50,907 bases of DNA, from assembly GCA_031404235.1 (NCBI GenBank), contig JANNHF010000141.1, positions 1 through 50,907 of the forward strand. Reading direction: 5' to 3'. A model generated the notes under the pieces. That model searched no databases and had not been told where the DNA came from. It saw nothing but the letters and a program-made list of their open reading frames with translations. The position numbers were made by a program, and so were the translations under genes. This document shows, in pieces, positions 24,253 to 25,532 of the stretch; within the stretch, counting starts at the first letter, position 1; every line of letters starts with the position of its first letter. This DNA is from Chloroflexota bacterium. Its GTDB lineage: Bacteria; Chloroflexota; Limnocylindria; P2-11E.

Positions 24253-25443
24253 ATGGATCAGCGTTTCCTCGTTGCGCTCCGCGAGCAGATCGCCTCGATC
24301 CGCGACGGCGGCCTTTACAAGACGGAGCGCGTCATCAGCTCGCCGCAGGGCGCGGAGATCGCGGTCCGGCCCGACCTCGAGGTCATCAACTTCTGCGCGA
24401 ACAACTACCTCGGGCTCTCCGACGACCCAAGGGTCCTCGCGGCCGCGCACGCCGCGCTCGACCGCTGGGGCTACGGCATGTCGTCGGTCCGCTTCATCTG
24501 CGGCACGCAGGACGTCCATAAGGAGCTCGAGGACCGGATCACGCGATTTCTCGGCACCGAGGATACGATCCTGTACGGCTCCTGCTTCGACGCGAACGGC
24601 GGTCTGTTCGAAACGCTGCTCGCGGAAGAGGATGCGGTCATCAGCGACGCGCTCAACCATGCGAGCATCATCGACGGCGTCCGTCTGTCCAAGGCGAAGC
24701 GCTTCCGTTATGCGAACAACGACATGGCCGATCTCGAGCGCCAGCTGAAGGACGCGGCCTCCTGCCGTTTCAAGCTCATCGCCACCGACGGCGTGTTCTC
24801 GATGGACGGGATCGTCGCGGACCTCGGCGCGATCTGCGCTCTCGCCGAGCGCTACACAGCGCTCGTGATGGTCGACGACTCGCATGCCGTCGGGTTCATG
24901 GGCGCGCATGGCCGCGGCTCGCACGAAGCGCGCGGGGTCGTCGGGCGCGTCGATGTGCTCACCGGCACACTCGGCAAGGCGCTTGGCGGCGCGTCCGGCG
25001 GCTACACCAGCGGCCGCAGAGAGATCGTCGAGCTGCTGCGGCAGCGCAGCCGGCCGTACCTCTTCTCCAACACGCTGGCGCCCGTCATCGCCGCCACGTC
25101 GATCGCCGTCCTCGACCTCATCGAATCCGCCGGCGACCTGCGCGAGCAGCTGTTCGCGAACGCTGCGCGCTTCCGGAGGGGCATGACTGCGAACGGCTTC
25201 CGGCTCGTCCCCGGCGAGCACCCGATCGTTCCGGTGATGCTCGGCGACGCGAAGCTCGCGACGGAGGTGGCCGACCGGCTGCTCGCCGAGGGCATCTACG
25301 TCATCGCCTTCTCGTTCCCGGTCGTGCCGAAGGGTCAGGCGCGCATCCGCGTGCAGCTCTCGGCGGCGCACACGTTCGAGCATGTCGATAGCGCGGTCGC
25401 GGCGTTCGCGAAGGTCGGTCGCGCCCTCGGTGTGATCAGATGA
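24253..25443 (+). CDS. kbl: 2-amino-3-ketobutyrate CoA ligase
   Basis: [44 protein letters not shown]. Confidence 0.96.
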
Positions 25444-25532
25444 CAGGTCGAGCGACGAGCGGCTTTGCTGCGAGGAGCGAGTCCACCAGCCTTGAGCGTG
25501 TCTCCTCGGCCGTAGCCGAGAGATTGAGCTGA
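25440..25532 (+). CDS. 30-aa repeat-derived mini-ORF bridging kbl and tdh
   Basis: [34 protein letters not shown] overlap with kbl stop, TGATG overlap with tdh start. Confidence 0.5.
25448..25529 (+). repeat. Structured ~82-bp repeat, copy 2
   Basis: Matches the reverse complement of 5464-5544. Confidence 0.95.

Follow-up and report, generated by a model that had tools for sequence, protein, structure and literature searches.

A structured repeat inserted at stop/start junctions of Candidatus Limnocylindria genes and its recurrent, doubly overlapping mini-open reading frame

The intercistronic region between a kbl-like and a tdh-like gene was analyzed on contig JANNHF010000141.1 of a Chloroflexota bacterium from the class Limnocylindria (assembly GCA_031404235.1). 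The whole stretch of 50,907 nucleotides is referred to as the window. In the gap between the two genes the listing of open reading frames (ORFs) revealed a 30-codon ORF with an ATG start, the mini-ORF, which spans most of a short repeat element. Its start codon shares an ATGA (25440-25443) with the TGA that ends the upstream ORF, and its own TGA overlaps the ATG of the downstream ORF in a TGATG (25530-25534). The junction comprises the following features:

24238..25443, plus strand: kbl-like upstream gene, 401 aa, class I/II aminotransferase fold (Pfam PF00155, E 4.6e-64)
25532..26560, plus strand: tdh-like downstream gene, 342 aa, zinc alcohol dehydrogenase fold (Pfam PF08240 and PF00107)
25438..25529, plus strand: inserted segment of 92 nt, missing from empty kbl-tdh alleles, giving one extra kbl codon (AGA), a new TGA and the overlapping ATG
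25440..25532, plus strand: mini-ORF of 30 codons, its ATG in the kbl-like stop (ATGA) and its TGA in the tdh-like start (TGATG)

The Pfam folds of the flanking ORFs fit kbl and tdh, without proving those names. A previous reading of this region, made from the sequence only, had described the mini-ORF with the same coordinates, the same two overlaps and the same peptide, which the ORF list and the translation bear out. This sequence-only reading had given 82 bp for the repeat in the kbl-tdh gap, a value which has to be replaced by the 92 nt (25438-25529) missing from the empty alleles. It had further proposed that a mobile or regulatory element enters operon junctions non-polarly by relaying ribosomes. 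As checks it had named a covariance-model search of the genome and its relatives, a search for empty kbl-tdh alleles and a tabulation of the orientation and frame of the copies.

Twenty loci carrying both genes were compared within the genus. The junction is filled only in the window's own genome (G000; 2.65 Mb, 272 contigs, 88.8% complete; other G numbers denote related genomes) and in its closest relative G001, and the remaining 18 loci are unfilled. Ten of these are compact: six read ...ATC TGATG, TAATG or TAGTG, and four have a start which overlaps the stop (GTGA or TGATGA). Of the other eight, one has an extra ORF and the rest have other short spacers. Contigs of four soil runs from three studies join 25436/25437 directly to 25529/25533, skipping 91-95 nt, often with a TAG between. 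From these compact and empty alleles it follows that the TGATG at 25530 is ancestral and that the inserted piece is 25438-25529. Therefore, the insert brought the additional AGA codon of kbl, its new TGA and the ATG which overlaps this stop. The copy in G001 is bordered by AAGTGA on the left and TAGTG on the right. It differs from the G000 copy by a +1 and a -1 indel at the same total length, and despite these indels its orthologous mini-ORF is still open (GTG..TAG).

The gatC-gatA junction is filled only in G000 among 18 loci, fifteen others showing a plain ATGA overlap. G000 and G010 carry the element between a 2Fe-2S and a molybdopterin subunit gene, and this junction is compact, i.e. overlapping or near-overlapping, in twelve other congener loci. 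Three further junctions were empty in 3 to 5 of the 5 relatives examined. The element was inserted, and most relatives have empty alleles at the same junctions. The empty kbl-tdh alleles for which a search had been suggested were found at 18 of the 20 congener loci and in the soil contigs. Two of the kbl-tdh alleles counted as empty (L125 from G013 and L122 from G003) possess spacers of 33-34 nt which by eye look like a decayed 3' hairpin of the element; these may be older or independent insertions. The RNA runs, which shared only 0.05-0.07 of the words, contained no contig across a filled junction; their contigs came from relatives, mostly at less than 95% identity, showed empty alleles and are silent on transcription of the element.

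A covariance model was built from five short copies in G000. In this genome it gave 19 matches at E<=1, ten of which were below 1e-5. Matches were present in 23 of the 24 other species of the genus (1 to 38 each) and in 87 of 91 genomes of the GTDB family, in nine genera and with up to 45 per genome, which adds up to more than 800 matches. Neither of two genomes of the sister family had a match, and a single weak match occurred among 14 genomes of three other families of the class. These tallies take in the unpublished genome G022 and, in the family-wide census, also G053, G063, G065, G086 and G087; no conclusion depends on them alone. An exact-pattern scan of species representatives, with a pattern taken from the linker of the element, yielded 50 stretches. 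Forty-seven of them belonged to Chloroflexi, Chloroflexota or Candidatus Limnocylindria metagenome-assembled genomes (MAGs), and the other three to one uncultured bacterium, one Planctomycetota MAG and one Saccharimonadales MAG; Mycobacterium was absent among these 50 stretches. Rfam 15 gave no match at gathering score in the window. Rfam matches around the element to mir-298 (E 2.2) and P26 (E 6) were rejected as chance level. A literature search on repeats in Limnocylindria found no relevant paper. The element is a member of an interspersed repeat family of ~85-92 nt which is specific to one GTDB family of Ca. Limnocylindria, and the suggested model search has thus recovered the family throughout this lineage.

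The surroundings of the copies were inspected using a simple codon-usage gene caller trained on G000. This caller is crude, and the copies are not all independent. Called genes were found on both sides of 83 of the 92 unique copies. Both flanking genes were in sense to the element in 54 cases, both were antisense in 9 and the arrangement was mixed in 20. The bias of 54 versus 9 (binomial p = 6e-9) shows that the orientation is non-random, which the sequence-only reading had put up for testing. In G000 the neighbours lie on the strand of the element at 13 of 15 upstream and 14 of 16 downstream positions. The upstream stop is mostly located within -6..+12 of the 5' end of the element, and in variants beginning with T the element itself supplies this stop, a TGA. 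For the downstream start most positions fall within -13..+7 of the end of the model. According to Pfam the flanking pairs in G000 are kbl/tdh, 2Fe-2S/MoCo subunit, GatC/GatA, two ABC half-transporters, RimI-like/TsaD, NuoJ/NuoK/NuoL and DnaJ-like/ClpB. Several of these pairs encode partners of one complex (2Fe-2S/MoCo, GatC/GatA, the ABC pair and NuoJ/K/L). Partners of one complex commonly use overlapping stop/start junctions. Among the co-directional gene pairs of G000, 185 of 1108 overlap by 4 nt. The element mostly sits in sense between co-directional, presumably co-transcribed genes, at their stop/start junctions.

An upstream stop and a downstream start could be assigned for 36 of 87 copies, which form 31 clusters by flank similarity. 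An ATG or GTG is located within -2..+12 of the upstream stop in 26 of the 31 clusters, and 15 of the 31 read ATGA. In 19 of these 26 clusters the ORF is coupled, i.e. it spans the whole element and its stop lies within -16..+4 of the downstream start. The expectation from frame counts is 9.3 (binomial p = 1.4e-4). Typical coupled ends are NTGA, TGATG/TAGTG and TAG-ATG. As a control, 162 co-directional element-free spacers of 60-150 nt from the same genome were scored. Such a start was present in 47 of them, six of which were coupled (6.7 expected), and ATGA occurred at 6 of the 162 upstream stops. Double coupling of the mini-ORF thus characterises the family and is no accident of the kbl-tdh copy, and tabulation of the frames has answered in favour of the sequence-only reading. 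In a tandem array (L060) each of the 84-nt units carries its own ATG...TGA frame.

The relay ORFs use frames 0, 1 and 2 in 10, 8 and 5 copies, respectively, and encode differing peptides of 25-43 aa. Since frame and peptide differ among the copies, at most the act of translation is conserved, and translation itself is predicted. These data bear on the view that the 30-aa product is a functional small protein. In its favour are the presence of an ORF with start and stop and the open orthologue in G001. Unrelated peptides in three frames are not what a functional small protein would produce, variation in the element tracks base pairs and not codon positions, and the same DNA is elsewhere read as a protein tail or is not open. 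We regard a functional small protein as highly improbable.

A search for exact matches in the window revealed 34 bases present at two sites, 25475-25508 (+) and 5484-5517 (-), which was obtained in none of 100 shuffles. The repeat search gave arms of 66 nt, 89% complementary, between both copies. The second copy is defined as follows:

5457..5546, minus strand: second full copy, between the 2Fe-2S and molybdopterin subunit genes (covariance-model E 8.5e-20)

The ORF of the 2Fe-2S subunit (5466..6011, minus strand) reads through this copy, which gives the protein a C-terminal tail of ~25 aa. Its stop at 5468-5466 lies 7 nt ahead of the ATG of the large subunit (5458-5456). The sequence-only reading had noted that this copy is open in the frame of the tail of HcrC. 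The in-frame 2Fe-2S tail was found as quoted, but the frame is common to both copies only as far as the 3' hairpin: this hairpin has 16 nt in one window copy versus 15 nt in the other, so that the frames diverge at the 3' end.

The fold was derived from an alignment of 97 matches from 90 sources, 92 of them unique, which was fitted to the model and in this way favours the structure. The unit consists of five parts: a 5' hairpin, a near-invariant linker, a 3' hairpin, a GAGAUYGAGC tail and, in most copies, an AGG after the tail. This AGG sits 2-10 nt ahead of the downstream start; where the kbl-tdh copy has UGAGC and then TGATG, most other copies have GAGCAGG. The core measures 75-82 nt in most copies, and the unit contains three direct copies of the motif YGAGC. 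In the kbl-tdh copy the parts are arranged as follows:

25449..25481, plus strand: 5' hairpin, Watson-Crick pairs broken by three tandem G.A/A.G steps, 3-nt loop at 25464-25466 (fold and covariation)
25482..25499, plus strand: linker UCCACCAGCCUUGAGCGU, near-invariant, the best conserved part of the family (column conservation)
25500..25524, plus strand: 3' hairpin, 10 bp, bulged C at 25505, 4-nt loop, over the family alignment 97.8% of cells paired, 8 of 10 pairs changed on both sides
25525..25534, plus strand: element end UGAGC and, behind it, TGATG, the overlap of stop and start at the ancestral junction (comparison with empty alleles)

Over the alignment 90.1% of the cells were paired, versus 79.9% in shuffles and 31-49% when the partners were slid. 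Changes on both sides were observed in 21 of 27 pairs, and none of 500 shuffles reached the observed values. Clean pair switches comprise CG 53 / UA 31 for the closing pair and GC 43 / CG 36 for the central pair of the 5' hairpin, and further UA 47 / GC 20 / CG 10 and GC 56 / CG 32. Despite the model-fitted alignment such switches are hard to explain otherwise. Three positions of the 5' hairpin read GA on both strands, and 76-82 of 92 copies retain the G.A and A.G cells there; from general knowledge of RNA and DNA structure we take these positions to be tandem sheared G.A pairs. Single-sequence folds were no more stable than shuffles (z -2.4 to +0.6, most above -2). These folding energies are unremarkable, and it is covariation that supports the structure. 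Two hairpins, maintained by compensatory changes, can form in the transcript strand.

Conservation after insertion was determined with five orthologous filled pairs of copies; a sixth pair was excluded for a nested insert in one member. The element was identical at 415 of 475 positions versus 553 of 753 third codon positions, taken from 240 nt of flanking sequence on each side (Fisher p = 3e-9). Plain decay of a dead insertion is unlikely, and either selection or exchange between copies keeps the sequence of the element. The strong fold and this constraint suggest that a structure, of RNA or of single-stranded DNA, matters in its own right. Therefore, real weight has to be given to two alternatives, a role of the RNA only and purely selfish DNA.

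Half elements, which consist only of the 3' hairpin and GAGCAGG, were found directly before the starts of nuoK, nuoL and clpB-like genes in G000:

C99:18000-18035 and 18364-18401 (L018): half elements
C143:31965-32001 (L024): half element
C118:7753-7784 (L021): half element

At the clpB junction other species carry the full element (L031, L037), and the 5' half has probably been deleted in G000.

In the RNA-only alternative the hairpins and the linker would be a processing or stability signal or a protein-binding site, and the mini-ORFs would be incidental. The 3' hairpin would serve the upstream segment, and the 5' hairpin together with the Shine-Dalgarno-like tract the downstream segment. 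The strong covariation in both hairpins, the conserved non-Watson-Crick G.A steps and the finding that the single-stranded linker and not the ends is best conserved all speak for this alternative. The same is true for the evolution of the copies, slower than that of third codon positions, for the persistence of half elements directly before starts and for the unconserved peptide with its use of all three frames. What it leaves unexplained is the start beside the upstream stop (26 of 31 clusters versus 47 of 162 control spacers) and the frame which ends at the downstream start twice as often as expected from frame counts. There is no Rfam family in support of it, and the unremarkable energies of single-sequence folds do not help it either. 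Close relatives differ in copy number, from 0 to 45, which agrees better with an element that spreads than with a fixed regulator. An RNA-only element thus appears possible but on the unlikely side.

The ends of the element were searched for signs of a transposition mechanism. Terminal inverted repeats were not found, the best end-to-end inverted match being 6/22. At five resolved junctions the flanking repeats ranged from GATG/GATGA through imperfect repeats of 8-9 nt up to ~15 nt. The longest common substring of the immediate flanks had a mean of 4.29 versus a null of 3.91, and the best ungapped flank match within 45 nt a mean of 6.48 versus 5.88. A regular target-site duplication of fixed length was rejected: the flank repeats are irregular, and their excess over the null is small. 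In two stretches (L044, L058) 24-25 nt with the ribosome-binding region and the start of the downstream gene are duplicated to the left of the element, and the mini-ORF starts from this copy of a working initiation region. The Y1/RAYT (REP-associated tyrosine) transposase family (PF01797), the sole enzyme family searched, was found in 0 of 26 genus genomes, MAGs of 67-97% completeness, versus 6 of 14 control genomes.

At the molybdoenzyme junction of G004 ~11 nt of the 5' end of the element remain directly ahead of the start codon, possibly a deletion or excision footprint. Together with the half elements this footprint would be consistent with deletions between the YGAGC motifs. Other relatives carry different small inserts at the same junction: in G013 a hybrid with the 5' hairpin of the element and a different 3' part, and in G018 and G020 (stretches L137 and L138) an unrelated insert of 98 nt with a GGGGCGGAGCCCC hairpin. 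Small inserts seem to favour certain junctions.

A second repeat of ~45 nt was noticed within some copies. It consists of a GGGG..CCCC hairpin followed by CAGCGAGCG..GCGAGCGTG and is located in the loop of the 5' hairpin; in L082 the loop of the 3' hairpin contains it, in reversed orientation. The following copies of the element contain it:

L001:6894-7018 (G000 C200): copy with nested ~45-nt repeat
L005:3951-4077 (G000 C212): copy with nested ~45-nt repeat
L004:2401-2549 (G000 C238): copy with nested ~45-nt repeat
L082:3599-3722: copy with nested ~45-nt repeat

A strict pattern for this repeat detected six copies in G000, and the four stand-alone copies likewise appear to lie within the loops of other GC-rich hairpins. 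It may be a small element which targets hairpin loops.

The second alternative is purely selfish DNA of the kind of miniature inverted-repeat transposable elements (MITEs), repetitive extragenic palindromic sequences (REPs) or palindrome-associated transposable elements (PATEs). The hairpins would then be single-stranded DNA signals for a putative transposase. The sense bias and the placement would result from a target preference for ATGA and TGATG and from the loss of harmful insertions, and duplication of the target would have left behind the ATG and the stop of the mini-ORF. Filled and empty alleles at five junctions, the very unequal copy numbers among congeners and the tandem arrays such as that of L060 with its 84-nt units fit this alternative, as do the possible excision footprint in G004 and the flanking repeats slightly above the null, two of them with 24-25 nt. 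Overlapping junctions are abundant targets (the 185 of 1108 co-directional pairs), and the nested second repeat attests active traffic of small repeats. The lack of terminal inverted repeats is difficult to reconcile with selfish DNA of this kind, and so is that of PF01797, the sole family searched, in the 26 incomplete MAGs of the genus. The flanking repeats are irregular in length, and most copies have none. Drift like that of silent sites would be expected for a dead insertion, but the orthologous copies are more conserved. Finally, the 54:9 sense bias exceeds the effect of the replication strand that we would expect. We consider purely selfish DNA unlikely.

Taking these observations together we favour, with somewhat better than even confidence, a MIRU-like explanation (MIRU, mycobacterial interspersed repetitive unit): the element is or was a mobile structured repeat which settles in sense at stop/start junctions of co-transcribed genes and carries a relay ORF that preserves their coupling. 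At kbl-tdh the old kbl stop overlapped the tdh start, the insert entered directly 5' of this stop, and the open frame through the insert ends on it, in overlap with the tdh ATG. Ribosomes finishing kbl would restart on the overlapping ATG, would melt the hairpins while reading the 30 codons, and would stop at the TGATG to restart on tdh. In this manner the translational coupling of the original overlapping junction would survive the insertion of 92 nt, and the peptide itself would have no role. The fold, together with the GAGCAGG purine tract before the start in most copies, may block independent initiation until the mini-ORF is read. The ribosome relay, the folding of the RNA in vivo and the mode of mobility are what we infer from comparison of the sequences. 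Orientation, empty alleles and the recurrent mini-ORF agree with the earlier proposal of a mobile or regulatory element entering junctions non-polarly, with the qualification that the TGATG is ancestral and not element-borne.

Several observations weigh against this MIRU-like explanation. The coupled ORF is missing in 12 of the 31 clusters: 7 of the 26 clusters with a nearby start are uncoupled, and another 5 of the 31 lack such a start. The upstream ORF runs into the element in 9 of 87 copies, among them the one at 5457-5546. In L003, L052 and L019 the element's own TGA is the upstream stop, and the frame of the overlapping ATG closes inside the element. Most of the element is open in two of the three frames, so that a lone mini-ORF carries little information. 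The downstream stop is ancestral, and duplication of the junction could have left the upstream ATG behind; imperfect flanking repeats of 4-9 nt, rarely of 24-25 nt, do occur. Half elements without an ORF before starts point to a role of the RNA or of the ribosome-binding region which needs no ORF. Moreover, the gene caller is crude, only 36 of 87 copies were scored, and these are not fully independent.

A stronger version of the relay is a domesticated, structure-gated translational coupler. Here the element would first have spread through the stop/start junctions of operons for multi-subunit complexes, and purifying selection would then keep it for a fold that hides the downstream ribosome-binding tract until a ribosome coming from the upstream gene reads the mini-ORF. 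The G.A rod and the linker would dock a protein or rRNA which adjusts the number of ribosomes handed on. As a speculation, the invariant CCAGCC might pair with the 3' end of 16S rRNA. This version is more doubtful than either alternative discussed above. If true, subunit ratios could be set by means of a portable element, and an uncultured soil lineage would have invented the MIRU principle a second time, independently.

Two observations concern other parts of the window. Long antisense ORFs lie opposite to the kbl-like and tdh-like genes (24208-25548, minus strand, 446 aa, and 25436-26473, minus strand, 345 aa). Such ORFs are usual in high-GC DNA, and the codon-usage caller called neither of them as a gene. 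Nine imperfect repeats of 12-15 nt, GGTGTTGCCGCCGCC-like, are located at 50728-50886; they probably belong to coding sequence of the opposite strand, as a glycine-rich repeat of low complexity.

The ratio between proteins translated from a common mRNA is set at overlapping stop/start junctions, where insertions should be harmful. MIRU has been the one cited natural case of a mobile repeat which avoids such harm by means of its own coupled mini-ORF (PMC12548453). The Limnocylindria family would be a second, unrelated-looking case in abundant uncultured soil Chloroflexota, with about a hundred copies, filled and empty alleles and a fold backed by covariation. It makes a termination-reinitiation relay across ~90 structured nt testable, and likewise the turning of repeats into host regulators. 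The element may also serve as a compact natural part for bicistronic designs and as a strain-typing marker in the GTDB family.

A literature search for other coupling-preserving repeats gave nothing relevant beyond MIRU. The sections of PMC3184786 at hand describe MIRU as repeats of 40-100 bp with ~40-50 copies in operon spacers, which are transcribed in polycistronic mRNA. They also report filled and empty sites, tetranucleotide direct repeats and ORFs overlapping the adjacent genes (PMC3184786). In the excerpts of PMC12548453, MIRU inserts at start codons, and the MIRU ORF is coupled to the gene at a -4 spacing, probably minimising the effect on expression. The likeness to the Limnocylindria element is a functional one by description. 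Both have a size of 40-100 bp, occur in tens of copies and lie between the genes of operons, oriented like these genes. Both also share filled and empty alleles, GC-rich internal inverted repeats and tandem arrays, and in both small ORFs overlap the neighbouring stop and start, which is read as low-impact insertion. Short direct repeats at some copies may be a further common trait; in the Limnocylindria family their excess over the null is small. Size and copy number, sense intercistronic placement, filled and empty alleles and an adjoining ORF, the last with 12 of 31 clusters lacking it, are the MIRU-type features found in the element. The differences are also clear. The Limnocylindria element belongs to another phylum, Chloroflexota. 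It has a covarying two-hairpin fold with three tandem G.A steps, whereas the MIRU passages at hand mention no covariation analysis. Furthermore, it is mostly single-copy per locus and not a variable-number tandem repeat, and its relay frame varies.

Rickettsia palindromic elements (RPEs), to which the sequence-only reading had likened the repeat, are also structured repeats readable in frame as protein. The 9 of 87 copies entered by the upstream ORF correspond to this type, among them the copy at 5457-5546, which forms a protein tail as an RPE does. Most copies, in contrast, lie between genes, and typically a separate mini-ORF begins at the upstream stop. For the intergenic kbl-tdh copy MIRU is therefore the better analogue, and the comparison with RPEs holds only in part.

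REPs and bacterial interspersed mosaic elements with RAYT, as well as PATEs of IS200/IS605, are likewise short GC-rich hairpin repeats in intergenic positions, often in operons, which are transcribed and can affect mRNA stability. The Limnocylindria element is longer, with two distinct hairpins and an invariant linker, is strictly in sense, abuts the stop and start and carries an ORF; no Y1 transposase was found in the 26 genomes. With MITEs it shares small size, a non-autonomous and multi-copy nature and insertion polymorphism. It differs from them by the lack of terminal inverted repeats (6/22) and of a regular target-site duplication. The defining features of MITEs and of REP/RAYT elements were not found, nor was a match to any Rfam family. 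The comparison thus best supports, as new, a probably coupling-preserving repeat of the MIRU type from an uncultured soil lineage, whose conserved fold is unusually clear.

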